Source: Escherichia coli (GTDB taxonomy: Bacteria; Pseudomonadota; Gammaproteobacteria; Enterobacterales; Enterobacteriaceae). Taken from it: a DNA stretch of 64,000 nucleotides. The DNA lies in NCBI RefSeq assembly GCF_041248615.1, contig NZ_CP158426.1. One strand, written 5' to 3'. The translations under genes were made by a program, and so were the position numbers. Position 1 is the first letter of the stretch. Every line of letters begins with the position of its first letter. The notes beneath the pieces were generated by a model that worked only from the letters and a program-made list of their open reading frames with translations, did not search any database and had not been told where the DNA came from. This document shows, one piece after another, positions 11,045 through 64,000 of the stretch.

Positions 11045-11320
11045 GTGGCTTCTGTTTCTATCAGCTGTCCCTCCTGTTCAGCTACTGACGGGGTGGTGCG
11101 TAACGGCAAAAGCACCGCCGGACATCAGCGCTATCTCTGCTCTCACTGCCGTAAAACATGGCAACTGCAGTTCACTTACACCGCTTCTCAACCCGGTACG
11201 CACCAGAAAATCATTGATATGGCCATGAATGGCGTTGGATGCCGGGCAACCGCCCGCATTATGGGCGTTGGCCTCAACACGATTTTCCGCCATTTAAAAA
11301 ACTCAGGCCGCAGTCGGTAA
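11045..11320 (+). CDS. insA: IS1 InsA
   Basis: 91 aa [40 protein letters not shown]... Confidence 0.95.
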
Positions 11321-11742: not shown

Positions 11743-11792
11743 GTTGGAGTCATTACCCATCACTGAATATCTTTATATAGTGAGGACTTATT

Positions 11793-12617: not shown

Positions 12618-12744
12618 TTTCATTACTGCAAATGCCCCTGCGGGGGCATTTATGGAAACATAATCGACTCAATAATCGCCGGATGGTGAGGGCTTCCTTT
12701 TACCAGAATTCAGCGTGGTGCAGCACATATACGTGGAGAACAAA

Positions 12745-13281: not shown

Positions 13282-13634
13282 ATGTTTTCGAAATGGAAGG
13301 GTTTCTTCACGGGAGATGTGTACCACGAGACCTGAAAGTGAATGAAACGGATGCTGAATACCTGGTGCGTAAATTCGATGCGCTTGAAGCTAAATGTGCA
13401 GCACAGGAAAACAAAGTAATACCAGTATCAGTTGAACTGCCACCAGCAAATGAAAGTGTTCTGTTATTTGATGCTAACGGAGAAGGCTGGCTGATTGGCT
13501 GGCGTTCTCTCTGGTACACCTGGGGACAAAAAGAAACCGGAGAATGGCTGTGGACATTTCAGATCGGGGACCTTGAAAATATTAATATCACTCACTGGGC
13601 AGTAATGCCAAAAGCACCGGAGGCTGGAGCATAA
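13272..13634 (+). CDS. yfdS: YfdS-like prophage protein
   Basis: 120 aa, overlaps the yfdR stop; same order as CPS-53 yfdQRS. Confidence 0.6.
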   Translation: MRMNVFEMEGFLHGRCVPRDLKVNETDAEYLVRKFDALEAKCAAQENKVIPVSVELPPANESVLLFDANGEGWLIGWRSLWYTWGQKETGEWLWTFQIGDLENINITHWAVMPKAPEAGA

Positions 13635-14254
13635 TGACCACTTACACCGATAAGGAACAGATTAAAGAAATCAAAGAACGAATCGGCAGCCTAGACGTGC
13701 GAGACAATGTTGAGCGCCTTGCTTATGAAATTGCTCTGGCATCACTGGAAGCAGAGCCGGTGGCGTGGCTTCATTCAGACAATGGCTTAGGTATTCCGGC
13801 AATAACCAGGAGCAAAAACATTGCTGACAGTTGGTTATCAAAGGGCTGGTATATTCAGCCGCTATATATGGCTCAGCCAGTGTCGGTGGTGCCGGATGCT
13901 CTTCCGTCTTTAAATAATGGCATAGTCGGCTTTGATGAAGGCTGGAACGCCTGCCGCGCCGCCATGCTTCATGGTGCCAAACCTGTAAGCCAGACTTACA
14001 AGTTGAACGAGCTGTCGGGCAACTCTCCGGTAACTCCGGATGGTTGGATAAGCTGTAGTGAGCGAATGCCGAACGATAAACAGTATGTTTGGTGTTGGGG
14101 GAAGTCTTACGGCTGGACTGAGTGCGATACCTTCGAAGGGTATTACGATTGGTCGAGAAACAAATGGTGGGCAGTTACTGACGATGTGGAAGAACCGGCA
14201 TCGAAAGTAACCCACTGGATGCCGCTACCGGAGCCGCCGCAGGAGGTAAAGTAA
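13634..14254 (+). CDS. prophage protein with DUF551-like C-terminus (YfdT-position)
   Basis: 206 aa; C-terminal W-rich segment ending THWMPLPEPP; start overlaps the upstream stop. Confidence 0.45.
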   Translation: MTTYTDKEQIKEIKERIGSLDVRDNVERLAYEIALASLEAEPVAWLHSDNGLGIPAITRSKNIADSWLSKGWYIQPLYMAQPVSVVPDALPSLNNGIVGFDEGWNACRAAMLHGAKPVSQTYKLNELSGNSPVTPDGWISCSERMPNDKQYVWCWGKSYGWTECDTFEGYYDWSRNKWWAVTDDVEEPASKVTHWMPLPEPPQEVK

Positions 14255-14436
14255 TGAACAACTTAATGACAACTAAACAAGTCGCCAACTTCTGTGGAGT
14301 TTCAGTATCGACAGTTCTTCGCTGGAACAGCGTAAACAGGAGAACTGGCCAGAAATACAGGCCAGACTTTCCAGATCCTGATATTAAATCATGCCCAAAT
14401 AAATGGGCATCAGAGCCTGTACATAGATTTGTGTAA
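14254..14436 (+). CDS. AlpA/Xis-like HTH protein (putative excisionase or regulator)
   Basis: 60 aa; TTKQVANFCGVSVSTVLRW ... FPDP pattern resembling the AlpA/HTH_17 family. Confidence 0.45.
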   Translation: MNNLMTTKQVANFCGVSVSTVLRWNSVNRRTGQKYRPDFPDPDIKSCPNKWASEPVHRFV

Positions 14437-14484
14437 TTGCCTGATTTTGATATGTTCAATCCAGCATCAAATGAAGGTTAATTT

Positions 14485-15693
14485 ATGGACGAAAAACAGT
14501 TACAGGCTCTGGCTAACGAACTGGCCAAAAACCTCAAAACCCCTGAAGACCTCAGTCAGTTTGATCGGCTGCTGAAAAAGCTCAGCGTTGAAGCCGCTCT
14601 CAATGCAGAGATGACACACCATCTTGGGTATGAGAAAAATCAGTCCAGACCAGGAGCTAACTCCCGCAACGGTTATTCCACAAAGACCGTTATCACAGGC
14701 GACGGTCCACTGGAACTGCGTACTCCGCGCGATCGTGACGGTACCTTCGAACCACAACTGGTAAAGAAAAATCAGACCCGTATTACCGGGATGGATAACC
14801 AGATCCTCTCGTTGTATGCCAAAGGGATGACCACCCGTGAGATAGCCGCTGCGTTCAAAGAACTGTATGACGCAGATGTTTCACCGGCACTGATATCAAA
14901 GGTTACCGATGCCGTGATGGAGCAGGTTGTAGAATGGCAAAACCGACCACTGGATGCTGTTTACCCCATTGTTTATCTTGACTGTATCGTCCTGAAAGTT
15001 CGGCAGGACAGTCGCATCATCAACAAATCGGTGTTCCTGGCACTGGGCATCAATATCGAAGGTCAGAAAGAACTGCTGGGTATGTGGCTGGCCGAAAATG
15101 AAGGGGCGAAGTTCTGGCTCAATGTGCTGACTGAACTGAAAAACCGCGGTCTGAACGATATCCTCATCGCCTGTGTGGATGGCCTGAAAGGCTTCCCGGA
15201 TGCCATCAACACAGTATATCCGAAGGCCCGCATCCAGTTATGCATCGTGCATATGGTGCGCAACAGCCTGCGCTTCGTGTCATGGAAGGACTACAAAGCC
15301 GTCACTCGCGACCTGAAAGCGATTTATCAGGCTCCCACGGAAGAGGCAGGTCAGCAGGCACTGGAAGCGTTCGCTGCGGCCTGGGACAGTCGCTATCCTC
15401 AGATAAGCCGAAGCTGGCAGGCTAACTGGCCGAATCTTGCCACGTTCTTCGCTTATCCAACGGACATCCGCAAAGTGATCTATACGACGAATGCCATCGA
15501 GTCGCTAAACAGCGTGATCCGCCATGCGATCAAAAAGCGTAAAGTGTTCCCGACAGACGACTCGGTGAAAAAAGTGGTGTGGCTGGCAATCCAGTCTGCG
15601 TCCCAGAAATGGACGATGCCGTTGAAGGACTGGCGAATGGCAATGAGCCGCTTTATTATCGAGTTCGGTGACCGCCTGGACGGTCACTTCTGA
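14485..15693 (+). CDS. IS256-family (Mutator-type) transposase
   Basis: 402 aa; IS256-family transposase architecture recognised from recall; terminal inverted repeats of the element not resolved by eye. Confidence 0.85.
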   Translation: MDEKQLQALANELAKNLKTPEDLSQFDRLLKKLSVEAALNAEMTHHLGYEKNQSRPGANSRNGYSTKTVITGDGPLELRTPRDRDGTFEPQLVKKNQTRITGMDNQILSLYAKGMTTREIAAAFKELYDADVSPALISKVTDAVMEQVVEWQNRPLDAVYPIVYLDCIVLKVRQDSRIINKSVFLALGINIEGQKELLGMWLAENEGAKFWLNVLTELKNRGLNDILIACVDGLKGFPDAINTVYPKARIQLCIVHMVRNSLRFVSWKDYKAVTRDLKAIYQAPTEEAGQQALEAFAAAWDSRYPQISRSWQANWPNLATFFAYPTDIRKVIYTTNAIESLNSVIRHAIKKRKVFPTDDSVKKVVWLAIQSASQKWTMPLKDWRMAMSRFIIEFGDRLDGHF

Positions 15694-15878
15694 GAAAAGG
15701 CATTTACACAGAATCCTAAACAGGCTCGGGCATCACGCAAGATTTACAAATTTGCGGGAGTTATTGAGTAACGAGCATTAGCTCAGATGAGAGTTGGTAC
15801 ACCTATGGCACAGAGCTAAACCTGATCTGTTATATTCGCTCTGTGCCGGAAGTATGCCATATTTATTACATACAGTTG

Positions 15879-18011
15879 TCAATCTTTAAGACTAATTGTG
15901 ATTGCATCTGGAAATCCAATTTGGCTATAGCACATAGTTTCGGTTATGAATAATTTTCTATCGATAAAATCAAGTACATCTTTTTTCGTGAGCCCCGTTA
16001 ACATCGTCAATTTGTTAATTACATAATCATACCAATCATGGTGAAGCATGTTTATATACATGTTAATATCAACTGCATCTTTCTTCCATGAATTATTCGG
16101 TATCAAATCTTCAGATAAAAATCCTCTTATTAAATCGCTTGCATAGGACATCCTAAGAAAAACAGAAAGAAAAAGCCTTACATTAACATGTGTAAAATTT
16201 GTAGATAGCGTCGAAGGAAACTCGTAAAACCGGTAGATCAACCGACTTACAAAAACAGCAGAGTCTATCGCATTTACAGGCAGTAATGTTCCGATGACAC
16301 TTAATGCACCACTTATAACGAAGCCATTAGCAACAGAGGCATGAGAACCACTTAGGGCAGATGTTAAACATGCACTCAGAATTACGATAGGAGGAATTCT
16401 TGCTATTTTTCTCAAACTCCAAGTGTCCACTTTATCCTCACCTATTATTAACCATCCATGACTCCCATTGCCATCATGGTTTCCATGACAATCCATAACA
16501 AGAATATGACCTTGATATTGATTTAGAGCATCAATAAACTCAGCTTTCGATCTAACATCAATAATCTCGCAATCAAGATCTGGCATCTGTTTTTTAAATA
16601 TCTCAATTGCGTTCTCTAATATGAACTTTAAGTGATCATCAGGCTCAAAAGAACGTATAACTAAAACCTTTCTCAACTCAGATGCTTTTACTAAAACGCG
16701 CGGAAAAGCAGAGGCGCTCTGTAGAAGAACGTTACCAGGCGTAGCATTTATTCTTGATATCTCATGACTGAACATTATAGGTATGTTATTAAACCTAATC
16801 CAATCCAATGGTACATCACAAACAAAGGACAAATCGCTATAGTTTTTACTTATATATGTTCTCAACTTGCAACCAAGGGCTCTTCGAATAACAGTATTGA
16901 ATGCTTTAGATTTAGTGATGAATGCTTCACTATTTATCCCAGAAGAAGTTGCAAGATCTTCAAGATTTTTCAAATAATTGGAGTAATGATTTATTGCATT
17001 TGGCAATCTTATTGCTGGGATTTTTTTATTTATGCTAAATAAAGTAATCGCAGCTGTTGTTAATCGCATTTCAGCGCGTCTTAGTGAGGTGAGGTAACGG
17101 AAAGCAGGACTTTTAAAAAGTTCTTTTCTATCTGAATTTATATCAAGTCTAATTCCAGAATAGCCTGGATTCCTCAACACTCCATCAATAAGGAATTTTT
17201 TCTCAATTGTGGATAAATTTTCCGTTATTAACTCATAAAAGTCATTATTTTTATCATATAAAAAAGAGTGCATACCCGGAGCAAAAAGTAAGACTTCCGT
17301 TGGAAGTGGTATATCTAATTCCTTTAAACATTCGGTGTATGCATCAACGCTATGAAGTATTATTTCTATAAACTCTCTTTTGCTACTACCATCTTTAATT
17401 CTTTTTGGTGGAGATAGCATATAGCCAAGTGATTCAATTAACAACTCATTGGGTAGTGTTGAATTGTTAAGCGTCGATCTCCAAGGTGATTTATTAAATA
17501 AAGCCCCTCTTCGCTTCAACTTCGTTGATATTTTCTTTTCACTGTGATTTTTTCTTATTTTATCCTCAATGAATTTCAACCGAGAGAAGAGCACCTTATC
17601 AAATGAGTATATACTATTAATCTTATTAAGTGGTAGATCAGCGCGTTTAGAATTGCAACAAATTATAGGTGGTATAGCAAAATGTTTTTTTAAAGCACAA
17701 ACATACGAAAAATCTTCTTTAGCACAAAAAATTAAGCAAAATGGCGTTTGATAAATATTTGGTATTTTTTCAAGATTTTCTTTAGATATTAAAAAAATAG
17801 GATTTAGCCCGCTTAGAGTAGGCTGAAAGTTATCATTTTCACTGACAAAAATCTCACTAATTTCTTTTGGTGTTTTGGCCAATAAAAAAAGAATGTTGGA
17901 TATCTCTGGGTTGAGGAGGCCAGTATCGAAACCTTGGATTATGGTTTGTTCCCCAGTAGTAGGCATGATTACAACTTTAAGTATCGCCCCGTGTTCCTGT
18001 AACAGTTCCAT
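15879..18011 (-). CDS. CHAT/caspase-like protease-domain protein with large unassigned N-terminal region (710 aa from ATG 18011; track 729 aa to 18068)
   Basis: C-terminal ILVMDCHGNHD ... PPIVILSACLTSALSG His/Cys dyad context typical of CHAT (Peptidase C14-like); strongly AT-rich; AGGA SD before ATG 18011. Confidence 0.55.
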   Translation of the reverse strand: MELLQEHGAILKVVIMPTTGEQTIIQGFDTGLLNPEISNILFLLAKTPKEISEIFVSENDNFQPTLSGLNPIFLISKENLEKIPNIYQTPFCLIFCAKEDFSYVCALKKHFAIPPIICCNSKRADLPLNKINSIYSFDKVLFSRLKFIEDKIRKNHSEKKISTKLKRRGALFNKSPWRSTLNNSTLPNELLIESLGYMLSPPKRIKDGSSKREFIEIILHSVDAYTECLKELDIPLPTEVLLFAPGMHSFLYDKNNDFYELITENLSTIEKKFLIDGVLRNPGYSGIRLDINSDRKELFKSPAFRYLTSLRRAEMRLTTAAITLFSINKKIPAIRLPNAINHYSNYLKNLEDLATSSGINSEAFITKSKAFNTVIRRALGCKLRTYISKNYSDLSFVCDVPLDWIRFNNIPIMFSHEISRINATPGNVLLQSASAFPRVLVKASELRKVLVIRSFEPDDHLKFILENAIEIFKKQMPDLDCEIIDVRSKAEFIDALNQYQGHILVMDCHGNHDGNGSHGWLIIGEDKVDTWSLRKIARIPPIVILSACLTSALSGSHASVANGFVISGALSVIGTLLPVNAIDSAVFVSRLIYRFYEFPSTLSTNFTHVNVRLFLSVFLRMSYASDLIRGFLSEDLIPNNSWKKDAVDINMYINMLHHDWYDYVINKLTMLTGLTKKDVLDFIDRKLFITETMCYSQIGFPDAITISLKD

Positions 18012-51365: not shown

Positions 51366-51569
51366 ATGTTTGGTAACTTAGGACAGGCAAAAAAATATCT
51401 CGGCCAGGCGGCGAAGATGTTGATTGGCATTCCAGACTACGACAACTACGTCGAGCATATGAAGACCAACCATCCCGACAAGCCGTACATGAGCTATGAA
51501 GAATTCTTCCGCGAACGCCAGAACGCGCGCTACGGCGGCGATGGTAAAGGCGGTATGCGCTGTTGTTAA
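51366..51569 (+). CDS. yjiX: YjiX (DUF466 small protein)
   Basis: 67 aa matching recalled K-12 YjiX. Confidence 0.9.
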
Positions 51570-51579
51570 TGGAGAGAGC

Positions 51580-52536
51580 ATGAACCCGATTGCAGTGACC
51601 CTACTCACCGGTTTTTTAGGCGCGGGCAAAACTACCCTGCTGCGCCATATTCTTAACGAACAACACGGCTACAAGATTGCCGTGATTGAAAACGAATTCG
51701 GCGAAGTCTCCGTTGATGATCAACTGATTGGCGACCGCGCCACGCAGATCAAAACGCTGACCAACGGCTGCATCTGCTGTTCGCGCTCCAACGAGCTGGA
51801 GGACGCGCTACTCGACCTGCTGGACAATCTCGACAAGGGCAATATTCAGTTCGACCGTCTGGTCATTGAATGCACCGGCATGGCCGATCCTGGCCCGATT
51901 ATTCAGACCTTTTTCTCCCATGAGATTTTATGCCAGCGCTACCTGCTGGACGGGGTGATTGCGCTGGTGGATGCGGTACATGCCGATGAGCAGATGAACC
52001 AGTTCACCATCGCCCAGTCACAGGTTGGCTACGCCGACCGTATTCTGCTGACTAAAACCGACGTCGCAGGCGAAGCAGAAAAACTGCGCGAACGCCTGGC
52101 GCGCATCAACGCCCGCGCACCGGTCTACACCGTCACCCACGGCGACATCGACCTGGGCCTGCTGTTCAACACCAACGGTTTTATGCTGGAAGAAAACGTC
52201 GTCAGCACCAAACCGCGTTTCCACTTTATCGCGGATAAACAAAACGATATTTCGTCGATTGTGGTGGAACTGGATTACCCGGTAGATATCAGCGAAGTTT
52301 CCCGGGTGATGGAAAACCTGCTGCTGGAATCGGCAGATAAACTGCTGCGTTACAAAGGGATGCTGTGGATTGACGGCGAACCTAACCGCCTGCTGTTCCA
52401 GGGCGTCCAGCGCCTCTACAGCGCCGACTGGGACAGGCCGTGGGGCGATGAAAAACCGCATAGCACGATGGTGTTTATCGGGATTCAGCTGCCGGAGGAT
52501 GAGATTCGGGCAGCGTTTGCTGGGTTGAGGAAGTAA
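51580..52536 (+). CDS. yjiA: COG0523 GTPase / zinc chaperone YjiA (318 aa)
   Basis: MNPIAVTLLTGFLGAGKTTLL (Walker A), CxCC motif; start set to ATG 51580. Confidence 0.9.
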   Translation: MNPIAVTLLTGFLGAGKTTLLRHILNEQHGYKIAVIENEFGEVSVDDQLIGDRATQIKTLTNGCICCSRSNELEDALLDLLDNLDKGNIQFDRLVIECTGMADPGPIIQTFFSHEILCQRYLLDGVIALVDAVHADEQMNQFTIAQSQVGYADRILLTKTDVAGEAEKLRERLARINARAPVYTVTHGDIDLGLLFNTNGFMLEENVVSTKPRFHFIADKQNDISSIVVELDYPVDISEVSRVMENLLLESADKLLRYKGMLWIDGEPNRLLFQGVQRLYSADWDRPWGDEKPHSTMVFIGIQLPEDEIRAAFAGLRK

Positions 52537-52559
52537 GTTCGGGAAAGATCAACTTTTTG

Positions 52560-52595
52560 AGAGTTCCACCGCAACATTATTACAAGTGGAACTCT
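52560..52595. terminator. bidirectional hairpin between convergent yjiA and the GmrSD-like gene
   Basis: AGAGTTCCAC (52560..52569) pairs with GTGGAACTCT (52586..52595), 16-nt loop, T-rich on both sides. Confidence 0.5.
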
Positions 52596-52604
52596 TTAGA
52601 TATG

Positions 52605-54257
52605 TCAGACCAACCAAAGCTTCTTCAATTGCGTTTTCATTTTTTCATGTCTCATTTTCAGTTCAGCCAATCCCCATTCTGAAGAATTACAAACATCTTT
52701 TGTTAAATCAAAAGAGCTTTTACTATTAAGTTTCTCATAAATAGATTTCTTTTTGATAAAATCATAGTGTTGTGCTTCAGAATTTTTGGAACCACTTATG
52801 AGTGTTAAATTACCTATTTTATGCAGCCAGTAGACATGCTCTTGAGGTTGGAATCTATTAATCCAGTATTCATTAACTAATGCTTGAGGAAGAATATGCT
52901 CAATTGTGATTCTCCCCGTATAGGTTTTAATCACGCTCTCATCTTGTTGCTCCATGTCTAAGCGAAGCAAAATTGCTTTTATTAAGTTCACTTGATTCGG
53001 ACGAGGCTCATATAAATCTTCATCCAGAGCAGCTATAAAACCTGAATTATCTGCATGTTGGTTTATCTGATTTATCACAGAATCAAAAGGCATATCATTA
53101 TTTATTGCTACCAGAGCTGAATAACAAACCATTTCTCTTTGGCTTTTAATTTGTTTTTTTAACCACCCATGCATATATACCTTCTCAAAGGCGGTAATAA
53201 ATTGAGAAAAATCATCTAAATTAAAATCTTCTGTACGAGCCATTCGATTCATGAATGCCATAACCGGAGGAATCCACTCATCTACCCCTAAATTACTTAG
53301 CGATGCTATTTTTCGTCGTATTGAAGGGTGTTCAAAATCATTCTCTAAAATCTTAGTATAATTTTTTGCAGAATTAACCAACATCAGTGACATAGCAATA
53401 GCATCTCCATCAAATTGCTGCTGGAGATTTTCAATAAAAGCTTCAAAACCTTTTTGTAATACCCTGTCACGATCTTTTTTCTCGGAAAGCTTATGAAGAG
53501 TAAGAAATTTATCAAGCCGTCTCACTCCAACCATATCTTCAATTTGCGACCATGCTGATTCTATTTGCTCTGATTTTTTATTATGCGTAGAAGCTGATTC
53601 AAACAGTGCATTTTTTAAAAGATCTGCATTACTTAAAGGTAAACCTCGACTATTTAATACATTAAAGAGTCTAAATGATGATGCGAAATCATCAGTTTGC
53701 ACAAATACGATATATACATTTTGCAAAATATATTTAGCAAGCAACTTCAACTCATCAACAGATAACCGCAACAAATAATCTCTAATTGTTTCAGCGTTGC
53801 TAATGAATACTAACTCAGTATCCGATGGCTTTTCAGGTTTATAATCTTTAGAATCCTGCAGTATATAATATTTATAAAGATCATACTCTTTTTTTCTAAC
53901 AATTAGTCTTGGTTCATCAGTTTCATCAGAATAAACATCAATAGGCAGAACTCTTTTTTGCAAATCATCTTTTATCCCCTGAATCGGGATGATTTTTTTT
54001 AGCTCGGAGACAATAATGCTTAACGTTGTAAGACGTTGTTGTCCATCTACAACTTCATACTGATTTTGCCCTTTATTGATACAAATCATACTCCCAATAA
54101 AATATTCATTCTCTTCTGATTGAGAGCTTTTATAAATATCATCAATGAGTTGCTCTGCATTATCTACCGTCCAACTGTAAGGACGCTGATAAGAAGGAAT
54201 AATAAACTTTTTGTTTTCAGTAAGGATATCCTGCACCTTACATTCTTTAGCTTCCAT
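52605..54257 (-). CDS. DUF262 + DUF1524 (GmrSD-family) putative type IV modification-dependent restriction endonuclease, occupying the K-12 mrr slot
   Basis: N-terminal ParB-like DUF262 motifs (IPSYQRPYSW, VVDGQQRLTTL); C-terminal His-Me finger DUF1524 motif (TIEHILPQ...GNLTLISGSKN); AT-rich; first ATG 54257 (track TTG 54278). Confidence 0.7.
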   Translation of the reverse strand: MEAKECKVQDILTENKKFIIPSYQRPYSWTVDNAEQLIDDIYKSSQSEENEYFIGSMICINKGQNQYEVVDGQQRLTTLSIIVSELKKIIPIQGIKDDLQKRVLPIDVYSDETDEPRLIVRKKEYDLYKYYILQDSKDYKPEKPSDTELVFISNAETIRDYLLRLSVDELKLLAKYILQNVYIVFVQTDDFASSFRLFNVLNSRGLPLSNADLLKNALFESASTHNKKSEQIESAWSQIEDMVGVRRLDKFLTLHKLSEKKDRDRVLQKGFEAFIENLQQQFDGDAIAMSLMLVNSAKNYTKILENDFEHPSIRRKIASLSNLGVDEWIPPVMAFMNRMARTEDFNLDDFSQFITAFEKVYMHGWLKKQIKSQREMVCYSALVAINNDMPFDSVINQINQHADNSGFIAALDEDLYEPRPNQVNLIKAILLRLDMEQQDESVIKTYTGRITIEHILPQALVNEYWINRFQPQEHVYWLHKIGNLTLISGSKNSEAQHYDFIKKKSIYEKLNSKSSFDLTKDVCNSSEWGLAELKMRHEKMKTQLKKLWLV

Positions 54258-54534
54258 TTCATATACCCAATCAAACAATCAACAATAACATTATCTTTCT
54301 TGCTCGAAAGAAACGCAACTATAAGATTTTTATATATTTTGTTAGAGTTGATATGGTTCCTGTAACTTCTGTTTATCTGTCTCTGATATGCCCAGATTAA
54401 TTCAAGCAAGATATAACAGAGATATCAATGTGATCTCTGCTACGTACTTTACGTTGAAACACCGCCCTAAATCATAGCCAGGCTATTGATTTTATGTACA
54501 ATCAGAATCGTCCTGATAAAAGCGAGAATACCCC

Positions 54535-56967
54535 ATGGCGGAACTGAACCTAAGTAACCTGACGGAAGCAGACATCATTACCAAATGCGTTATGCCAGCC
54601 ATTCTCAATGCAGGCTGGGACAACACAACGCAAATCAGACAGGAGGTCAAACTCCGGAACGGTAAAGTCATCGTACGTGGTAAAGTTGCGGCACGCAGAA
54701 CGGTAAAATCTGCTGACATCGTGCTGTATCACAAACCAGGCATTCCCTTAGCCGTGATTGAAGCAAAAGCCAACAAACATGAAATCGGCAAAGGGATGCA
54801 ACAGGGCATTGAATATGCGCGCCTGCTGGACGTTCCTTTTGTTTTTGCCACCAACGGTGATGGCTTTATCTTCCGCGACGCCACCGCAGCCGAAGGTGAA
54901 TGCCTTGAAAAGCAAATAACGCTGGATGACTTCCCCTCCCCCGCTGAACTCTGGCAAAAATTCTGCCTCTGGAAAGGATACACACAAGCTCAGCTTCCGG
55001 TGATTACTCAGGACTATTACGACGATGGCAGCGGTAAATCACCACGTTATTACCAGCTTCAGGCAATCAACAAAACCATTGAAGCCGTCTCCAACGGGCA
55101 AAACCGCGTTCTGCTGGTCATGGCGACCGGAACAGGGAAAACCTATACCGCATTCCAGATCATCTGGCGCCTGTGGAAATCAAAAAATAAAAAACGCATT
55201 TTGTTCCTTGCCGATCGCAACATTCTGGTCGACCAAACCAAACATAATGATTTCCAGCCATTTGGTACGGCAATGACCAAAGTCAGCGGACGCACCATTG
55301 ATCCCGCTTATGAAATTCACCTCGCGCTCTATCAGGCTATAACTGGCCCGGAGGAAGACCAAAAAGCGTTTAAACAAGTCGCACCAGATTTCTTCGATCT
55401 GATCGTGATCGACGAATGCCATCGCGGCAGCGCATCCGAAGACAGCGCCTGGCGAGAGATCCTTGATTATTTCAGTTCCTCCACCCAAATTGGCTTAACC
55501 GCCACGCCAAAAGAGACGCATGAAGTCTCCAGCACGGATTACTTCGGCGATCCGGTTTACGTCTACTCACTAAAAGAAGGGATCGAAGACGGCTTCCTCG
55601 CCCCTTATAAAGTTGTCCGTGTTGATATTGATATAGACCTGCAAGGCTGGCGCCCAACCAAAGGGCAAACTGACTTAAACGGCGAAGTGATCGACGATCG
55701 TATCTATAACCAGAAAGATTTCGATCGCACGATGGTAATCGACGAACGCACAGAACTGGTTGCCAGAACCATTACCGACTACCTCAAGCGCACCAACCCG
55801 ATGGATAAAACCATCGTCTTCTGTAACGACATCGATCATGCAGAACGTATGCGCCGCGCCCTGGTTAATCTCAACCCGGAGCAGGTGAAAAAGAACGACA
55901 AATACGTCATGAAAATCACCGGCGATGATGAAATTGGCAAAGCTCAGTTGGATAACTTCATCAACCCGAAAAAACCGTACCCGGTTATCGCGACCACTTC
56001 AGAGCTGATGACCACCGGTGTGGATGCTAAAACCTGCAAACTGGTAGTACTGGACCAGAACATCCAGTCGATGACCAAATTCAAGCAAATTATCGGTCGT
56101 GGTACACGCATCGACGAACGTTACGGCAAACTCTGGTTTACCATCCTCGACTTTAAAAAAGCCACCGAACTGTTTGCCGATGAGCGTTTCGATGGCATTC
56201 CCGAAAAAGTCATGGATACCACGCCAGAGGATATCGCCGACCCAGAATCTGATTTTGAAGAGAAACTCGAAGAAATCAGCGAACATGACGACGAACAGGT
56301 AACAGGCGTTGATGAACCGCCTGCGCCACCATACCAGGTTACCGATACCGATGATGTCGGCCCACTTCCGGAAGAAGACGAGAAGAAAATCCGCAAGTTT
56401 CACGTCAACGGTGTAGCGGTGGGCGTTATTGCGCAGCGTGTTCAGTATTACGATGCCGACGGTAAACTGGTTACCGAATCTTTTAAAGATTACACCCGCA
56501 AAACACTGCTCAAAGAATATGCCTCGCTGGATGACTTTACCCGCAAGTGGCAGGACGCCGATCGCAAAGAAGCGATCATTCACGAGCTGGAACAACAGGG
56601 GATCATCTGGGAAGTACTGGCAGAAGAAGTCGGTAAAGATCTCGACCCGTTCGACATGCTTTGCCACGTAGTGTATGGTCAGCCGCCGTTAACCCGCAAA
56701 GAGCGCGCCGAGAACGTGCGCAAGCGGAACTACTTCACAAAATACTCTGAAGCAGCGCAAGCCGTGCTCGATAATCTGCTGGATAAATACGCCGATGCGG
56801 GCGTACAGGAGATCGAAAGTATTCAGGTGCTGAAACTTAAGCCATTCGACAGCATGGGCACCTTACCGGAGATTATTAAAACCGGATTTGGCGACCGTAA
56901 CGGGTATAATCAGGCGCTCAGCGAGCTGGAAAACGAAATCTACCAATTACCGCCCCGCTCTGCTTAA
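54535..56967 (+). CDS. hsdR: type I restriction enzyme R subunit (810 aa, type IB/EcoAI-like size class)
   Basis: SF2 helicase motifs (MATGTGKT Walker A, DECHRGSA); length fits the type IB class, not the 1170-aa EcoKI HsdR. Confidence 0.9.
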
Positions 56968-56981
56968 CAACTCTCTTTTGC

Positions 56982-57020
56982 GCCTTCTGCAACCATCATG
57001 TTGCAGAAGGCCTTGTTTTT
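56982..57020 (+). terminator. perfect 11-12-bp hairpin plus T-run in the hsdR-hsdM spacer
   Basis: GCCTTCTGCAA (56982..56992) pairs with TTGCAGAAGGC (57001..57011), then CTTGTTTTT. Confidence 0.5.
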
Positions 57021-57033
57021 CATGGAATACAAC

Positions 57034-58503
57034 ATGTCTATCAGCTCAGTAATCAAATCATTACAAGATATTATGCGCAAAGATGCCGGTGTGGACGGCG
57101 ATGCGCAGCGTCTCGGTCAGCTCTCCTGGCTGCTGTTTTTGAAAATCTTCGATGCCCAGGAAGAGGCGCTGGAACTGGAGCAGGATAACTATCAATATCC
57201 GATCCCACAGCGTTATTTATGGCGCAGTTGGGCCGCAAACGCTCAGGGCATTACCGGTGATTCCCTGCTGGAATTCGTTAATGATGATCTGTTCCCGGCG
57301 TTGAAAAACCTCACTGCGCCTATCGATAAAAACCCACGCGGCTACGTGGTAAAGCAGGCGTTCAGCGATGCCTATAACTACATGAAAAACGGTACGCTAC
57401 TGCGTCAGGTGATCAACAAGCTGAACGAAATTGACTTTACCAGCGCCAGCGAACGGCATCTGTTTGGTGATATTTACGAGCAGATCCTTAAAGATCTGCA
57501 ATCTGCGGGCAATGCGGGCGAATTCTATACTCCACGCGCCGTCACTCGCTTTATGGTGGATCGCGTTGATCCGAAACTCGGCGAATCCATTATGGACCCG
57601 GCCTGCGGTACGGGCGGTTTTCTTGCCTGCGCATTTGATCATGTAAAGAACAAATACGTGAAGAGCGTCGCCGATCATCAGACGCTGCAACAACAGATCC
57701 ACGGTGTTGAGAAAAAACAGCTTCCGCACCTGCTGGCGACCACCAATATGCTGCTACACGGCATTGAAGTGCCAGTGCAAATTCGTCACGACAACACTCT
57801 GAACAAACCGCTTTCCTCCTGGGATGAGCAACTGGATGTCATTGTTACCAACCCGCCGTTTGGTGGCACGGAAGAAGACGGTATTGAGAAGAACTTTCCA
57901 GCAGAGATGCAAACCCGCGAAACGGCGGATTTGTTCCTGCAACTGATTGTGGAAGTACTGGCGAAAAATGGTCGCGCGGCGGTGGTATTGCCGGATGGCA
58001 CACTATTTGGCGAAGGCGTTAAAACCAAAATCAAAAAGCTACTTACCGAAGAGTGCAACCTGCATACCATCGTGCGCTTACCGAATGGTGTGTTTAACCC
58101 CTATACCGGCATTAAAACCAACCTGTTGTTCTTTACCAAAGGTCAGCCAACCAAAGAGATTTGGTTCTATGAGCATCCGTATCCGGCGGGCGTGAAAAAT
58201 TACAGTAAAACTAAGCCGATGAAGTTTGAAGAGTTTCAGGCGGAGATTGACTGGTGGGGTAACGAGGCCGATGGTTTTGCCAGCCGCGTCGAGAATGAGC
58301 AGGCGTGGAAAGTCAGCATTGATGACGTGATTGCGCGCAACTTCAATCTGGATATTAAAAACCCACATCAGGCGGAAACCGTTAGCCATGATCCGGACGA
58401 ACTGTTAGCGCAGTATGCAAAACAGCAGGCGGAGATCCAGACGCTGCGTAATCAACTGCGCGATATTCTTGGCGCTGCGCTGTCTGGCAAGGAGGTTAAC
58501 TAA
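57034..58503 (+). CDS. hsdM: type I N6-adenine DNA methyltransferase M subunit (489 aa from ATG 57034)
   Basis: SAM motif I (DPACGTGGFL) and motif IV (NPPFG); stop overlaps hsdS start (TAATG). Confidence 0.9.
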   Translation: MSISSVIKSLQDIMRKDAGVDGDAQRLGQLSWLLFLKIFDAQEEALELEQDNYQYPIPQRYLWRSWAANAQGITGDSLLEFVNDDLFPALKNLTAPIDKNPRGYVVKQAFSDAYNYMKNGTLLRQVINKLNEIDFTSASERHLFGDIYEQILKDLQSAGNAGEFYTPRAVTRFMVDRVDPKLGESIMDPACGTGGFLACAFDHVKNKYVKSVADHQTLQQQIHGVEKKQLPHLLATTNMLLHGIEVPVQIRHDNTLNKPLSSWDEQLDVIVTNPPFGGTEEDGIEKNFPAEMQTRETADLFLQLIVEVLAKNGRAAVVLPDGTLFGEGVKTKIKKLLTEECNLHTIVRLPNGVFNPYTGIKTNLLFFTKGQPTKEIWFYEHPYPAGVKNYSKTKPMKFEEFQAEIDWWGNEADGFASRVENEQAWKVSIDDVIARNFNLDIKNPHQAETVSHDPDELLAQYAKQQAEIQTLRNQLRDILGAALSGKEVN

Positions 58504-60248
58504 TGAGTGTGGAAAAGCTGATCGTTGATCATATGGAAACCTGGACCTCGGCGTTGCAAACCCGTTCCACCGCCGGGCGCGGCAGTTCCGGAAAAATTGA
58601 TTTATATGGCATTAAGAAATTACGTGAGCTGATTCTGGAACTGGCTGTGCGCGGTAAACTGGTGCCGCAGGACCCGAACGATGAACCGGCGTCGGAGCTG
58701 CTGAAGCGTATTGCGGCAGAAAAAGCAGAGCTGGTGAAGCAAGGTAAAATTAAAAAGCAAAAACCACTGCCGGAAATTAGTGAGGAAGAGAAGCCGTTTG
58801 AATTGCCGGAGGGATGGGAGTGGGTGCGTATTAGTGAAATTGGACATGACTGGGGACAAAAAACTCCAGATAAAGATTTTACTTACATTGATGTTGGTTC
58901 AATAAATAAAGAATATGGAATTATTGAAGAGCCATCTATTCTTTCAGCGAAAGATGCCCCATCGCGAGCGAGAAAAATTGTTCAGCAAGGGACTATCATA
59001 TACTCTACTGTTCGCCCGTATTTGTTAAATATAGCTATTATTGAAAACGAAATACTACCTGAACCGATCGCTAGTACTGCCTTCGCTATTATTCATCCAT
59101 ATACGGCGATGGATGCTAATTTCATTTATTATTATCTACGTTCTCCGGTATTTGTTTGTTATGTTGAAAATTGTCAGACAGGGGTTGCCTATCCAGCAAT
59201 CAATGACAAACAATTTTTTTCTGGAATAACTCCAGTTCCTCCATCCTTGGAACAAGTTCGCATCGCAAACAAAATCAAAGAATTAATGTCCCTCTGCGAC
59301 CAACTGGAACAGCAATCCCTGACCAGTCTGGACGCACATCAACAACTGGTTGAAACCCTGTTGGGAACGCTGACTGACAGCCAAAACGCCGAGGAACTGG
59401 CTGAAAACTGGACGCGTATTAGCGAGCATTTCGACACACTATTTACCACCGAAGCCAGCGTGGATGCGCTAAAACAGACCATTCTGCAACTGGCGGTAAT
59501 GGGTAAACTTGTGCCGCAGGATCCGAATGACGAACCTGCCTCTGAACTGCTCAAACGAATTGCGCAGGAAAAAGCACAACTGGTGAAAGACGGGAAAATA
59601 AAAAAACAAAAACCGTTGCCGCCGATTAGCGATGAGGAAAAACCGTTTGAACTGCCGGATGGGTGGGAGTGGTGTCGTATCGTTGATTTAGCAATTGTAG
59701 GTACAGGCGCAACACCTTCTCGTGATGAGCCCAACTATTGGAAAAATGGAGTAATTAATTGGGTGACAAGTGGAGAAACTTGCTTACCTTTTATTCAAAA
59801 CACCACCGAACATATTACCCAAAAGGCTGTTGATGAAACAAATGTTTCAATCTATCCACCAGGAACTCTTATTATTGCAATGTATGGACAAGGAAAAACA
59901 AGAGGGCAAATCACAGAGTTATTAATAAGTGCTGGAACAAACCAAGCATGCGCAGCCATTCGATTAATCGAAACGGATAATGAGCATCGTAAATTTATAA
60001 AACTTTTTTTTGAAAAGTCTTATGATGATTTACGTAGTTTAGCCGCTGGAGGTGCACAGCCAAATCTAAATGTAGCAAAAATATCACAAACTGTTATACC
60101 ATTGCCCCCTAAAAGAGAACAAAATCGGATCGTTTCTATTGTGGGGGAGTTATTAATTTATTGCGATAAATTACGCAAAAATATCCAGACCGCCCAACAA
60201 ACCCAACTGCACCTTGCAGATGCACTAACTGACGCGGCGATAAACTAA
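58503..60248 (+). CDS. hsdS: type I specificity subunit HsdS (581 aa) with two conserved repeats flanking AT-rich target-recognition domains
   Basis: GKLVPQDPNDEPASELLKRIA...KQKPLP...EEKPFELP(E/D)GWEW repeated at about residues 45-110 and 330-395; AGGAGG SD. Confidence 0.9.
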   Translation: MSVEKLIVDHMETWTSALQTRSTAGRGSSGKIDLYGIKKLRELILELAVRGKLVPQDPNDEPASELLKRIAAEKAELVKQGKIKKQKPLPEISEEEKPFELPEGWEWVRISEIGHDWGQKTPDKDFTYIDVGSINKEYGIIEEPSILSAKDAPSRARKIVQQGTIIYSTVRPYLLNIAIIENEILPEPIASTAFAIIHPYTAMDANFIYYYLRSPVFVCYVENCQTGVAYPAINDKQFFSGITPVPPSLEQVRIANKIKELMSLCDQLEQQSLTSLDAHQQLVETLLGTLTDSQNAEELAENWTRISEHFDTLFTTEASVDALKQTILQLAVMGKLVPQDPNDEPASELLKRIAQEKAQLVKDGKIKKQKPLPPISDEEKPFELPDGWEWCRIVDLAIVGTGATPSRDEPNYWKNGVINWVTSGETCLPFIQNTTEHITQKAVDETNVSIYPPGTLIIAMYGQGKTRGQITELLISAGTNQACAAIRLIETDNEHRKFIKLFFEKSYDDLRSLAAGGAQPNLNVAKISQTVIPLPPKREQNRIVSIVGELLIYCDKLRKNIQTAQQTQLHLADALTDAAIN

Positions 60249-60374
60249 TTTTCTCGCCCTCAAAAAAACCAATAAAGCGGCTCAATAGCCGCTTTATTAA
60301 CATCACCAAAAATTATATTTCACGCTAATTTTCATCTTATTTTCATTAATTTTTAGCTGGACTTTCCCTGTATT

Positions 60375-60394
60375 TACTGATGATATATCCAGGT
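60375..60394. promoter_or_regulatory. putative LexA box in the symE promoter region
   Basis: TACTGATGATATATCCAGGT matches the LexA consensus at 14/20 (CTG-N10-CAG); symE is SOS-induced (established). Confidence 0.4.
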
Positions 60395-60396
60395 AT

Positions 60397-60473
60397 TTAG
60401 CGCGGTGCGGATGTGCGCCAACACACCCACACCGCTCATCACAATCCCTATTTCACGAGAATAGTAATCATGA
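60397..60473 (-). ncRNA. symR: SymR antisense sRNA (approximate position, inferred from symE)
   Basis: in K-12 the ~77-nt SymR is encoded antisense over the symE 5' UTR and start codon; coordinates are by analogy, not read from a conserved sequence. Confidence 0.3.
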
Positions 60474-60811
60474 CTGACACGCATTCTATTGCACAACCGT
60501 TCGAAGCAGAAGTCTCCCCGGCAAATAACCGTCAATTAACCGTGAGTTATGCGAGCCGCTACCCGGATTACAGCCGTATTCCCGCCATCACCCTGAAAGG
60601 TCAGTGGCTGGAAGCTGCCGGTTTTGCCACCGGCACGGCGGTAGATGTCAAAGTGATGGAAGGCTGTATTGTCCTCACCGCCCAACCACCCGCCGCCGAA
60701 GAGAGCGAGCTAATGCAGTCGCTGCGCCAGGTGTGCAAGCTGTCGGCGCGTAAACAAAAGCAGGTGCGGGAATTTATTGGGGTGATTGCGGGTAAACAGA
60801 AAGTCGCCTGA
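60470..60811 (+). CDS. symE: SOS-induced toxin SymE (113 aa, AbrB-fold endoribonuclease-like)
   Basis: [47 protein letters not shown]... matches recalled K-12 SymE. Confidence 0.9.
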
Positions 60812-60857
60812 TACATTGACCCGGTAGCGCCAGTGCTACCGGGTATTATTCGCCACG

Positions 60858-62951
60858 TTATACCAACGCGTTCTCCATCTGTTTTTCAAATGCCTGACGA
60901 ATTAATCCCATAATGTAAGGAAGTTGTGCGAGGTCGCTGAAACCAATTTCCACATCACCATTGCCCCAGCGCCCAACATTTGTCACATCTTTGGCAATAC
61001 CTTTCGGATCGACCAGTTCATGAAACTGCATATTAAGCGACAATCGCAGTCGGCTTTTTTGCGGCACAACATCAACAAAATTCGTTTCAGCTTTAAACGC
61101 AATATATAGCTTCAATACTTCCTGCGTGATCCCTGCGTCCAGGCGCATAACTTCATCGCGAAGATGATCGAATAACACTCGGCTATGCGAACCATCAGCA
61201 AGAAAAGGAAAATCATTCAGGCTGTAACTGGTTTTGTTTTCAGGCTGCCCCCGATAAACAGCTAAAACCTCTTCAGGAAGAGCAGGCGCTTGCCAAACCT
61301 GAACCGCAAGCTCCGCCAGACGATCGGCACGGGCATGAATGGCGGCTTCATCCCATTTTTCGCACTGTCCAAGACCGATATTCAAATAGAGCGGGCTATG
61401 TTTAAAGCCGTCTTCAATATCGCGTTTTTCCGCGAAAGGTCTGTCACTGTAGCGGGAGTTATAGCGCGTTAAAGTGAGATTCCCCAACGTATGTAACAGT
61501 TCTTTATGCACACGCTGCCAGTCGCTTCCCAGCTCTTCACGCCATTTAGCCGACAGATTTTCGTTCTGCGGCATAATATGCTCAATCGTAAACTCTTCCA
61601 CGCGCTCTCTGCGTTTATCGTTTTCCAGTCGTCGTAACCAGTAGCTGCGACTACGGAAGTTATAGAGATCGCGAACTTTTAATTCCCGTTTAAATTCATC
61701 ATCGTTGGGGAAACGACGATATGAAGGCAGATTCAGAAAATGTACCTGAATACTTTCCAGATATTTTTCTTTAATAATGACCTTATAAAAGGTAGCAAAC
61801 GTCTTGTTAAGAGAATTTGTCGGAATCGCACATACTGCACGGCGGAAAACATAAGATTCAATTAAACGAATTATGCTCAGGAAATCTTCGTGAGGCAAAT
61901 CGCCATTTTTATAGTCATGATAAAGCGCCAGTAAGAAAGGATACGCCACATCGACCTTTAACTCGCGCAAATCCTGAAAAGCCGTAGCAAGCGATTTGTC
62001 ACTTTCTTTACCCAATGCCATTGCACAGTAATACTCCGCGTAGATGTGAATATCTTCAACCAGGCGATCTACGCCTTTTTCAGCAACACTCTGGCTGCGG
62101 GCATGGAGTTTAAATGCCTCATAGACTTCATCTGTCCGAGGGATCTCCCCCGTTTTTACCGTCAGATAATGACGCATAAAACTGTCAAAATATTCGCTGT
62201 AACCTTGCTGACCAAAAGCGACTTCCATGGGTCGCCAGTGATCTTCATACAACCGGGTTTGATGCTCTGGTTCGAGGCCCATCAGAATAAAATTGCGCAC
62301 CAGATCGGCCTGACTTAACGCCTTACCGGTAGAGTTCATACTTTCAAAAATCAGTTGCGGATTATCCTGACCACGATTAAGCGCCACATCGACAATTAAT
62401 AATTTTGCTAACCCACGACATAAGGGAATCAAGTCATCCCCGAGTTTGGCAATTTGTTCATCAAAGAAAGTAAAGTTTTCCATTATTCGATGGGAATAGT
62501 TTTCTGGCATTGGTCTTTGTTTTATTAACGCCAGCAAACTGTCTTTATCAGTCTCGGTCAGCAGTAATTTAAATCCTTTCTCGCCGGACTCATAAGGATT
62601 GAGTAAATAATAATTACGCAATTTCATTGCTGAAAAGCCATCAAAAACTTCGTCTTCGCCAAGATGACGCGATAAAGCCTCAATCAGCAACATTGCGGTC
62701 GTCAGCCTTTGTTGACCATCAATGACCAGTAACGGAGAAATACCAGAAACCTGATACAACCCCTGCTCAATATAAACAACCGAACCGATAAAATGCGCTG
62801 ATATATCGTCACGCTTTCCGGCACGAATGATGTCGTCCCAAAGTTGCCGACATTGTTGTTCTGTCCATGAATAAGTCCGTTGATAAATGGGAATAACAAA
62901 CTGCTGCGAACGTTTTAAAAAATCGAGTAGGCGGGCTTCTGTAGCTTTCAT
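60858..62951 (-). CDS. second DUF262 + DUF1524 (GmrSD-family) putative type IV restriction endonuclease, occupying the K-12 mcrBC slot
   Basis: 697 aa; N-terminal IPIYQRTYSW and VIDGQQRLTTA (DUF262); C-terminal FTIEHIMPQN...GNLTLTRYN (DUF1524). Confidence 0.7.
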   Translation of the reverse strand: MKATEARLLDFLKRSQQFVIPIYQRTYSWTEQQCRQLWDDIIRAGKRDDISAHFIGSVVYIEQGLYQVSGISPLLVIDGQQRLTTAMLLIEALSRHLGEDEVFDGFSAMKLRNYYLLNPYESGEKGFKLLLTETDKDSLLALIKQRPMPENYSHRIMENFTFFDEQIAKLGDDLIPLCRGLAKLLIVDVALNRGQDNPQLIFESMNSTGKALSQADLVRNFILMGLEPEHQTRLYEDHWRPMEVAFGQQGYSEYFDSFMRHYLTVKTGEIPRTDEVYEAFKLHARSQSVAEKGVDRLVEDIHIYAEYYCAMALGKESDKSLATAFQDLRELKVDVAYPFLLALYHDYKNGDLPHEDFLSIIRLIESYVFRRAVCAIPTNSLNKTFATFYKVIIKEKYLESIQVHFLNLPSYRRFPNDDEFKRELKVRDLYNFRSRSYWLRRLENDKRRERVEEFTIEHIMPQNENLSAKWREELGSDWQRVHKELLHTLGNLTLTRYNSRYSDRPFAEKRDIEDGFKHSPLYLNIGLGQCEKWDEAAIHARADRLAELAVQVWQAPALPEEVLAVYRGQPENKTSYSLNDFPFLADGSHSRVLFDHLRDEVMRLDAGITQEVLKLYIAFKAETNFVDVVPQKSRLRLSLNMQFHELVDPKGIAKDVTNVGRWGNGDVEIGFSDLAQLPYIMGLIRQAFEKQMENALV

Positions 62952-63047
62952 TCTGACGTCTTTCCGTGAAGCGATGATTTCGCAATAATAACCACTTCCT
63001 TGTGGAGGTTATAGAGAAATCCTGTTTATCCGCGACGAACTGCCCCC

Positions 63048-63212
63048 TCACTCCACATCCTCCCTGCGTAACCCAATATCCCTCAACCGCTCATCACTCA
63101 TCTGCTGTAACACCCGCCGGGCCTGCATTTGCCGCCGCCAACGCCTCACTGCCTGCCAGAGTTGCACAAGTCCAATAAACGGTGCTTTAGCTTTGTTTTC
63201 GTGAAATTCCAT
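63048..63212 (-). CDS. yjiS: YjiS (DUF1127 small protein, 54 aa; below the ORF-track length cutoff)
   Basis: hand translation gives MEFHENKAKAPFIGLVQLWQAVRRWRRQMQARRVLQQMSDERLRDIGLRREDVE, matching recalled K-12 YjiS. Confidence 0.8.
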   Translation of the reverse strand: MEFHENKAKAPFIGLVQLWQAVRRWRRQMQARRVLQQMSDERLRDIGLRREDVE

Positions 63213-63388
63213 CTGCTGCCTCCTCATCTTTCAGAGGCTTCATCATCCGCCTTCTGGCAGTTCACAATACAGATGCAAATATTAGTTTTATTTAACATAC
63301 AGACAGGTTAAAACAGCATCTGCATCCGGTTTTTTAGCCTCATCTGTACCGGTTTTTCTCTCTGTATGGTCCAAAGAAGGAATACAGC

Positions 63389-64000
63389 ATGACGCGTTAT
63401 CAACATCTGGCGACTTTGCTTGCCGAGCGGATTGAGCAAGGGCTGTATCGTCACGGGGAGAAATTGCCGTCGGTGCGCAGCTTAAGTCAGGAGCACGGCG
63501 TCAGCATCAGCACCGTGCAGCAGGCGTACCAGACGCTGGAGACGATGAAGCTCATCACTCCGCAGCCGCGTTCGGGTTATTTTGTCGCACAACGTAAAGC
63601 CCAGCCGCCAGTACCACCAATGACGCGTCCGGTGCAGCGCCCGGTGGAAATTACCCAGTGGGATCAGGTGCTGGATATGCTGGAGGCGCATAGCGACAGT
63701 TCCATTGTACCGTTAAGCAAAAGCACGCCGGATGTCGAAACGCCCAGCCTGAAACCGCTGTGGCGTGAGCTAAGCCGGGTGGTGCAGCATAATCTGCAAA
63801 CCGTTCTCGGTTATGACTTGTTAGCCGGTCAGCGAGTGTTGCGAGAGCAGATTGCCCGCCTGATGCTCGACAGCGGCTCGGTGGTCACTGCCGATGACAT
63901 CATCATCACCAGCGGCTGCCATAACTCGATGTCGCTGGCGTTAATGGCGGTGTGTAAACCGGGCGATATTGTCGCGGTCGAATCCCCCTGTTATTACGGT
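63389..64000 (+). CDS. yjiR: MocR/GntR-family regulator YjiR, 5' portion (runs off the window end)
   Basis: ATG 63389, in frame to the window end; N-terminal GntR HTH (MTRYQHLATLLAERIEQGLYRHGEKLPSVRSLSQEHGVSISTVQQAY) then aminotransferase-like region. Confidence 0.85.
   Translation, partial: MTRYQHLATLLAERIEQGLYRHGEKLPSVRSLSQEHGVSISTVQQAYQTLETMKLITPQPRSGYFVAQRKAQPPVPPMTRPVQRPVEITQWDQVLDMLEAHSDSSIVPLSKSTPDVETPSLKPLWRELSRVVQHNLQTVLGYDLLAGQRVLREQIARLMLDSGSVVTADDIIITSGCHNSMSLALMAVCKPGDIVAVESPCYYG

Follow-up and report, generated by a model that had tools for sequence, protein, structure and literature searches.

The immigration control region and its genes

The subject of this report is the immigration control region (ICR) in a 64,000-nucleotide stretch of the Escherichia coli contig NZ_CP158426.1 (assembly GCF_041248615.1). 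The whole stretch is referred to as the window, and positions are those of the window unless an extracted locus is named. In E. coli K-12 the ICR has the order mrr-hsdRMS(type IA)-symE-mcrBC. The window has the same two anchors, yjiA and yjiS, and the same symE/symR module, but it differs from K-12 in having a type IB restriction-modification (R-M) system and two genes for GmrSD-like proteins, which replace both Mrr and McrBC. These two genes are called g1 (in the K-12 mrr slot) and g2 (in the K-12 mcrBC slot). As described below, the locus is a common ICR allele that has been published before, and it is present here in an intact form.

The features of the region are listed in Table 1. A preliminary description of the window had placed six genes here, with g1 and g2 as two distinct DUF262/DUF1524 genes around a type IB-sized hsdRMS set, and it had noted that g1, g2 and the target-recognition domains (TRDs) of HsdS are AT-rich relative to the flanking core. 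The open reading frame (ORF) list agrees with the coordinates and lengths given for the six genes. The composition is also as described; the G+C content is 0.332 in g1, 0.439 in g2 and 0.375-0.389 in the two TRDs, compared to 0.50 in hsdR/hsdM and 0.55 in yjiA. The segment 51500-63800 is 100% identical to E. coli NRZ14408 (NZ_LT599825.1). A promoter scan gave consensus-level matches only, and none of them exceeded the shuffled expectation.

Table 1. Features of the immigration control region and of the two homopolymer sites discussed in the text.
Feature	Position	Strand	Basis or remark
yjiA (GTPase), conserved left anchor of the ICR	51580..52536	+	RefSeq annotation of the identical record and checked translation
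g1, GmrSD-family, 550 amino acids	52605..54257	-	ORF list and Pfam
A8 homopolymer, g1 codons 87-89	53993..54000	-	A7 in EDL933, causing a frameshift
AT-rich divergent g1/hsdR intergenic region, presumed promoters	54258..54534		G+C 0.343
hsdR, type IB restriction subunit, 810 amino acids	54535..56967	+	NF046051, PADLOC
hsdM, type I methyltransferase subunit, 489 amino acids	57034..58503	+	PADLOC
hsdS, specificity subunit, 581 amino acids	58503..60248	+	PADLOC
Terminator-like G+C-rich hairpin	60268..60301		15-pair stem, 20 nucleotides 3' of the hsdS stop
symR, antisense RNA antitoxin	60399..60475	-	Rfam RF01809
symE, type I toxin, 113 amino acids	60470..60811	+	NF010128
g2, GmrSD-family, 697 amino acids	60858..62951	-	ORF list and Pfam
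G5 homopolymer, g2 about codon 268-269	62147..62151	-	G4 in EDL933, causing a frameshift
yjiS (DUF1127), conserved right flank	63048..63212	-	Annotation and translation

Two GmrSD-family proteins

A profile search places both flanking proteins in the GmrSD family, as the preliminary description had proposed. Each has the Pfam domains GmrSD_N (PF03235, formerly DUF262) and GmrSD_C (PF07510, formerly DUF1524). In g1 these cover amino acids 8-219 (nucleotides 53601-54236; E 4.7e-41) and 412-540 (nucleotides 52638-53024; E 2.1e-27), respectively, and in g2 amino acids 9-222 (nucleotides 62286-62927; E 9.4e-35) and 415-547 (nucleotides 61311-61709; E 1e-26). According to Pfam, g2 has an extra C-terminal DUF5655 domain at amino acids 591-690 (nucleotides 60882-61181). 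The three motifs reported earlier are present in both proteins: DGQQR at residue 71, EHILPQ at 453 and GNLTL at 482 of g1, and DGQQR at 78, EHIMPQ at 457 and GNLTL at 490 of g2. An identity of only 24% between the two proteins agrees with the view that they are distinct. No NCBIfam model was found for g1 or g2.

The 550-amino acid form of g1, which starts from an ATG, is RefSeq WP_000387532.1; the mechanical ORF reaches a TTG at 54278 and would give 557 amino acids. The UniRef cluster that holds g1 is named for Q6TMI4_ECOLX, whose low accession number would be compatible with an early submission. The homologs of g1 have a uniform length of 550-552 amino acids, and in an alignment of 35 of them DGQQR (71-75), H454, N483 and N492 are invariant and E453 is nearly invariant. 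A similar pattern is present in 76 aligned g2 homologs, where D78, Q80, Q81, R82 and N491 are invariant and E457, H458 and N498 are nearly so. Eco94GmrSD cannot cleave without D507, H508 and N522 (PMC4437046), and E453/H454/N483/N492 of g1 and E457/H458/N491/N498 of g2 correspond to these residues.

EcoCT596 GmrSD and Eco94GmrSD are the prototype type IV enzymes for DNA containing glucosylated hydroxymethylcytosine and hydroxymethylcytosine. Like g1 and g2, they are single-chain DUF262-DUF1524 proteins with a DGQQR motif and a (D/E)H...N site. However, they are 23-24% identical to g1 and g2 and are prophage-borne rather than in the ICR, and they lack the DUF5655 domain of g2. Using the CT596 GmrSD and BrxU prototype sequences from the supplement of a paper, BLASTP aligned g1 to CT596 GmrSD over amino acids 1-241, the N-terminal domain (23% identity, E 6e-14), and g2 over amino acids 1-553 (24% identity, E 1.6e-29). 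Both are remote homologies. BrxU could be aligned by BLASTP only around DGQQR.

The best sequence match in the PDB for both proteins is DndI of Salmonella Cerro 87 (9JFL). DndI has the same two-domain architecture as g1 and g2, although the identity is only about 18%, and it partners with the dndBCDE phosphorothioation genes and cuts unmodified DNA. The AlphaFold2 model of g2 has a mean pLDDT (predicted local distance difference test score) of 90 and a pTM (predicted template modeling score) of 0.79. In a Foldseek search its best PDB matches are DndI (9JFL, E 1.8e-16), then SspE and then BrxU (7P9K, E 6.8e-5), the last being a family-level fold match. BrxU is a type IV enzyme that, like g1 and g2, adjoins a methylation-based system; however, it is embedded in and co-oriented with a bacteriophage exclusion (BREX) system, whereas g1 and g2 are on the strand opposite hsdRMS. 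No BREX genes are present here, and the embedding that marks the BrxU type is lacking.

The best PADLOC models for g1 and g2 belong to a set labeled 'Orf5'. We dropped this label as evidence for a phosphorothioate connection because dndBCDE and sspABCD genes are absent from the locus and from the rest of the 64-kb window, and because the model set appears to span many DUF262-DUF1524 proteins.

Genomic contexts of g1 and g2 relatives

The homologs of g1 occur in several settings. For example, one is a lone gene in Vibrio, one is beside BrnT in Nostoc and one is beside a TIR-domain gene in Pectobacterium. In Vibrio parahaemolyticus, a homolog that is 76% identical (8001-9653 of two extracted loci) lies among small genes that all point in one direction, including several acetyltransferases; the arrangement resembles the cassette array of a chromosomal integron.

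The g2 family is large, with more than 8,000 proteins at E <=1e-10 and 2,782 representatives of 50%-identity clusters at E <=1e-30. Homologs of about 700 amino acids with all three domains are 70-74% identical to g2 in Halomonas, Oceanimonas, Nitrincola, Salinivibrio and Kiritimatiella. Conservation this high across phyla was unexpected for a type IV-like defense gene. Two of these homologs, 71-73% identical to g2, are inside type I operons. The Kiritimatiella one (71%; 8001-10103 of the extracted locus) is flanked by hsdS and hsdR, the stop and start codons of adjoining genes overlapping, and the Oceanimonas one (8001-10100 of the extracted locus) overlaps the 3' end of hsdR in an operon with the order brxR-hsdM-hsdS-...-hsdR. 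The Nitrincola homolog stands alone beside an Mks-like system and has no adjacent type I system.

The annotation of g2 in the public record also deserves a comment. The exact 697-amino acid protein is recorded on 836 contigs (the exact g1 protein is recorded on at least 1,000). However, the NCBI Prokaryotic Genome Annotation Pipeline (PGAP) used for RefSeq splits the intact ORF into a 387-amino acid 'GmrSD restriction endonuclease domain-containing protein' and a second feature that it calls a pseudogene ('DUF262 ... missing C-terminus'); the 276 nucleotides between the two are left unannotated. The ORF has no internal stop in NRZ14408 or in HM670, where the split-annotated gene lies at 13359-15452 and 11001-13094 of the extracted loci, respectively. 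Our guess is that frameshifted fragments from O157:H7 served as the protein evidence. The result is that the RefSeq annotation masks an intact 697-amino acid gene by cutting it into two features.

The type IB system and the symE/symR pair

The hsdR-hsdM-hsdS set is complete. Over amino acids 9-804, HsdR scores 1189.7 bits against NF046051, the NCBIfam equivalog model of the EcoAI/FtnUII family. Because this is well past the cut-off of 550, the system is assigned to type IB, as its size had led the preliminary description to suppose. PADLOC agrees for all three subunits, with 1701 bits for HsdR (REase_I) and full-length matches for HsdM (MTase_I, 807 bits) and HsdS (Specificity_I PDLC03179, 855 bits).

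The closest comparison is with strain EDL933 (O157:H7), to which HsdR is identical at 805 of 810 residues and HsdM at 487 of 489. A block-wise alignment of HsdS gives a mixed picture. TRD1 is nearly identical to the EDL933 allele, with one substitution, and the central conserved region is highly similar, but TRD2 (about amino acids 391-565; nucleotides 59673-60197) is unrelated to that of EDL933. Conserved frames flank the exchanged TRD2, and the difference looks like a domain swap. Since TRD2 differs, the recognition sequence should differ as well; one half-site is expected to be the same as that of the O157:H7 enzyme, and the other is expected to be different.

The symE/symR genes are a type I toxin-antitoxin pair. 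SymE matches NF010128 with 228.5 bits (cut-off 132), and SymR matches Rfam RF01809 with 88.1 bits (gathering score 61; E 2.1e-16). The symR gene overlaps the 5' end of symE.

The 'empty' site of E. coli C

The order of genes in WG5, which we take to be an E. coli C derivative, is yjiA, g1 (the same WP_000387532.1 protein), a 188-amino acid 5' remnant of a type IB hsdR, and yjiS (8160-10653 of the extracted locus). WG5 thus retains the identical g1 protein without hsdMS. The WG5 DNA aligns to positions 51366-55099 of the window and then to 63043-64000. Because of this match, we read the 'empty' ICR of E. coli C as what looks like a deletion derivative of the arrangement described here, minus the 7.9 kb from 55100 to 63042 and with g1 left intact. 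E. coli C is the classical 'restrictionless' host with an empty ICR (PMC12707154).

Frequency of the allele and its frameshifted copies

The preliminary description regarded the arrangement as an unusual allelic state of the ICR. This turned out not to be so. When a 12.3-kb query was compared to 5,426 complete E. coli genomes and at least 80% coverage was required, the arrangement was present in 529 of them (about 10%), in diverse serotypes that include O157:H7, O55:H7 and HM670 (O2:H1). A large share of the 529 are O157:H7 and O55:H7. Taken separately, g1 is present in 619 complete genomes (11%) and g2 in 1,480 (27%). O104:H4, ABU 83972, LF82 and IAI39 are among the g1 matches, and O104:H4 and ABU 83972 also have the intact g2 probe site described below. 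Together with the literature, this locus-wide comparison indicates that the arrangement is essentially a common, catalogued allele.

Both g1 and g2 are intact in the window, and they are also intact in HM670, which shares the arrangement. In EDL933, each gene is broken by a one-base homopolymer deletion (A8 to A7 at codon 89 of g1 and G5 to G4 at codon 269 of g2). PGAP product names mislead about the intactness of g2, since intact ORFs are annotated as two pieces; therefore, 61-nucleotide probes over the two frameshift sites were used instead. The g1-site probe was exact in 248 genomes and had one difference in 324, and the g2-site probe was exact in 923 and had one difference in 383; these counts are lower bounds, and other lesions are possible. 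From the probe counts, the arrangement is probably present with both sites intact in roughly 200 genomes, a number obtained by subtraction and not by a census. The sampled rows suggest that the genomes with one difference are mostly O157:H7 or its relatives. Phase variation at A8 and G5 was considered but seems less likely, because the frameshifted forms in the sampled rows cluster almost entirely in O157:H7 and related strains; inherited lesions fit this pattern better than switching.

Another gene at the edge of the ICR has also been lost in O157:H7. An Rpn-family recombination-promoting nuclease gene is located two genes past yjiS, beyond the end of the 64-kb window (17545-18489 of the extracted NRZ14408 locus). 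NRZ14408 and WG5 have an intact copy, whereas the copy in EDL933 carries a frameshift (15551-16307 of the extracted locus).

The published record

Several reports have already dealt with parts of this locus. He et al. listed gmrSD homologs that replace mcrBC in the ICR in 2015, with 24% identity to Eco94GmrSD (PMC4437046, Fig. 8). These homologs are in the same slot as g2 and are most likely the same gene. The EDL933 copy is between yjiS and symE and is 97% identical to g2 in DNA, but it is frameshifted, whereas g2 is intact here. The examples in that study were mostly drawn with Mrr on the opposite side, whereas the window has a second GmrSD-like gene in the mrr slot. A 2025 EcoSal Plus review also draws the ICR with gmrSD homologs and gives ICR frequencies for 9,040 enterobacterial genomes: type IB 11%, GmrSD 12%, Mrr 22% and McrBC 6% (PMC12707154).

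Silas et al. clustered the enterobacterial DUF262 proteins in 2025; WP_000387532 (g1) is in CLS_005, and the EDL933 g2 fragments WP_001304006 and WP_001304007 are in CLS_001, the largest cluster (PMC12373910). Representatives of all 15 GmrSD groups were synthesized and tried against T2, T4 and T6, and five of 12 previously untested enterobacterial groups restricted T-even phages (PMC12373910). Two GmrSD genes flanking one type IB system are not discussed in that paper. It is also known that GmrSD-like genes are often beside or embedded in type I systems (Machnicka et al. 2015, PMC4619093; Payne et al. 2024, bioRxiv 10.1101/2024.01.29.577857).

The discovery value of the locus itself is therefore small, because the allele is common, its genes are catalogued and their relatives have already been used in phage assays. 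What this analysis adds to the published record is also small, namely the DUF5655 end of g2, its cross-phylum identity of about 70% and its placement in type I operons elsewhere.

Other features of the window

The left end of the window (about 1-19400) is a lambdoid prophage remnant beside yjjG. Its integrase is at about 18145-19362 on the minus strand, and next to it is a gene for a 710-amino acid CHAT-domain protein (about 15879-18011, minus strand), which may be a cargo or defense gene at the prophage end. The remnant also has IS1414, IS1B, a BRCT-domain protein and KilA-N.

What the locus might do

The interpretation that we favor, with a probability of about 0.7, is that the allele consists of four stacked and independent modules: g1, the type IB hsdRMS system, symE/symR and g2. 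It starts from the gene content, the domain architecture, the conserved catalytic motifs, the predicted fold and the distribution described above. The hsdRMS system would methylate its own bipartite site and cut DNA that lacks this methylation. The g1 protein would be a stand-alone, single-chain GmrSD-family nuclease, and g2 would be a second one. By analogy with the family, the N-terminal DUF262 domain (ParB/Srx-like, with DGQQR) would bind and hydrolyze a nucleoside triphosphate (NTP), drive a conformational switch and control the nuclease, and DUF1524 at the C terminus, a His-Me-finger (EH...N...N), would cut or nick DNA. Both putative nucleases would be NTP-dependent and presumably modification-dependent, and their most likely targets would be phage genomes that contain hypermodified bases and evade the type I enzyme. 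The DUF5655 domain of g2, which has a YdhG/YjbR-like alpha-beta fold, could be an extra DNA-contact or regulatory module. The autonomy of g1 is supported by its homologs that are lone genes in other taxa and by its presence without hsdMS in WG5. The homologs of g2 have defense neighborhoods, some within type I operons and one next to an Mks-like system.

Some points weigh against this interpretation. The GmrSD family is mechanistically mixed, and it is not uniformly modification-dependent because DndI, the nearest solved relative of both proteins, introduces nicks into unmodified DNA and is released by host phosphorothioate (PMC11662687); SspE is activated by host phosphorothioate (PMC11662687). 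The nuclease activity and the substrates assigned to g1 and g2 are putative and are taken from the behavior of the family. E. coli C, the classical 'restrictionless' host (PMC12707154), nevertheless has g1 in intact form. Finally, both genes have been lost to frameshifts in the O157:H7/O55:H7 lineage, so they are dispensable.

There are three other explanations. One or both proteins might resemble DndI or SspE, that is, they would read a host modification such as phosphorothioate or something similar and attack unmarked DNA, and the host would be protected by the modification instead of the nuclease depending on it. DndI is the best PDB sequence match for both proteins (E 4.8e-13 and 1.9e-12) as well as the best fold for g2, and the 'Orf5' models apparently take their name from ORF5 in the dpt cluster of Salmonella (PMC2978375), which seems to be the gene that was subsequently named dndI (PMC11662687). 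However, the modification genes that such a protein would need are lacking in the window, as noted above, and the identity to DndI is low. Furthermore, Dnd is absent from the ICR and present in 2% of genomes at hotspot 37 (PMC12707154), compared to 11% and 27% of complete E. coli genomes for g1 and g2, and DndI is toxic without phosphorothioate (PMC11662687), yet g1 is alone in WG5 and a lone gene elsewhere. We consider this explanation highly improbable. It is somewhat easier to imagine that g1 and g2 are relics, either silent or in decay, that currently serve no function in this strain, given that both are frameshifted throughout the O157:H7/O55:H7 lineage, that E. coli C with its intact g1 has no classical restriction phenotype (PMC12707154) and that the promoter signal is at the shuffled level. 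It is nevertheless improbable, as both ORFs are intact here and in HM670, the frameshift sites are intact in at least 248 (g1) and at least 923 (g2) complete genomes, the exact g2 protein is on hundreds of contigs, and the protein length and catalytic residues are conserved from the Enterobacterales to Nostoc and Kiritimatiella.

The remaining explanation concerns g2, which might be functionally coupled to the type I R-M system, for example by sensing its methylation state or its inhibition, in which case it would not act as a type IV enzyme on its own. The Kiritimatiella homolog, coupled to hsdS and hsdR by overlapping codons, and the Oceanimonas homolog that overlaps hsdR would fit this idea, as would the unusual conservation of the family and the fact that g2 adjoins the hsdRMS-symE block in all four of the examined E. 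coli loci that carry it (including PMC4437046 Fig. 8). In E. coli, however, g2 is convergent with hsdRMS on the opposite strand and thus is not co-transcribed with it, and g2 is also found beside Mrr-containing ICRs with other type I sets (He et al., PMC4437046). The Nitrincola homolog lacks a type I neighbor, and GmrSD-like genes in type I, BREX and Hma systems have already been read as complementary, independent defense (bioRxiv 10.1101/2024.01.29.577857; PMC4619093). The constructs of Silas et al. were single-gene or two-gene GmrSD without type I genes (PMC12373910). Therefore, coupling of this kind seems unlikely. A related suggestion, for which the odds are slightly better but still poor, is that g2, instead of being an ordinary free-standing GmrSD of the T-even type, belongs to a distinct and unusually conserved subclass in which the YdhG/YjbR-like C-terminal domain reads a DNA mark or the state of the type I R-M system. 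This would explain both the identity of about 70% between E. coli and the Kiritimatiellota and the translationally coupled embedding between hsdS and hsdR seen in other bacteria. If it were true, a corollary would be that E. coli C, despite being called 'restrictionless', has in g1 a working restriction enzyme for some modified DNA.

Implications

Strains with this allele, apparently including O104:H4, LF82 and ABU 83972, probably carry two intact type IV-like nucleases. These could limit T-even-like therapeutic phages or the uptake of modified DNA, whereas O157:H7 has lost both. It is worth defining which substrates belong to the commonest enterobacterial GmrSD cluster and what its DUF5655 domain does.

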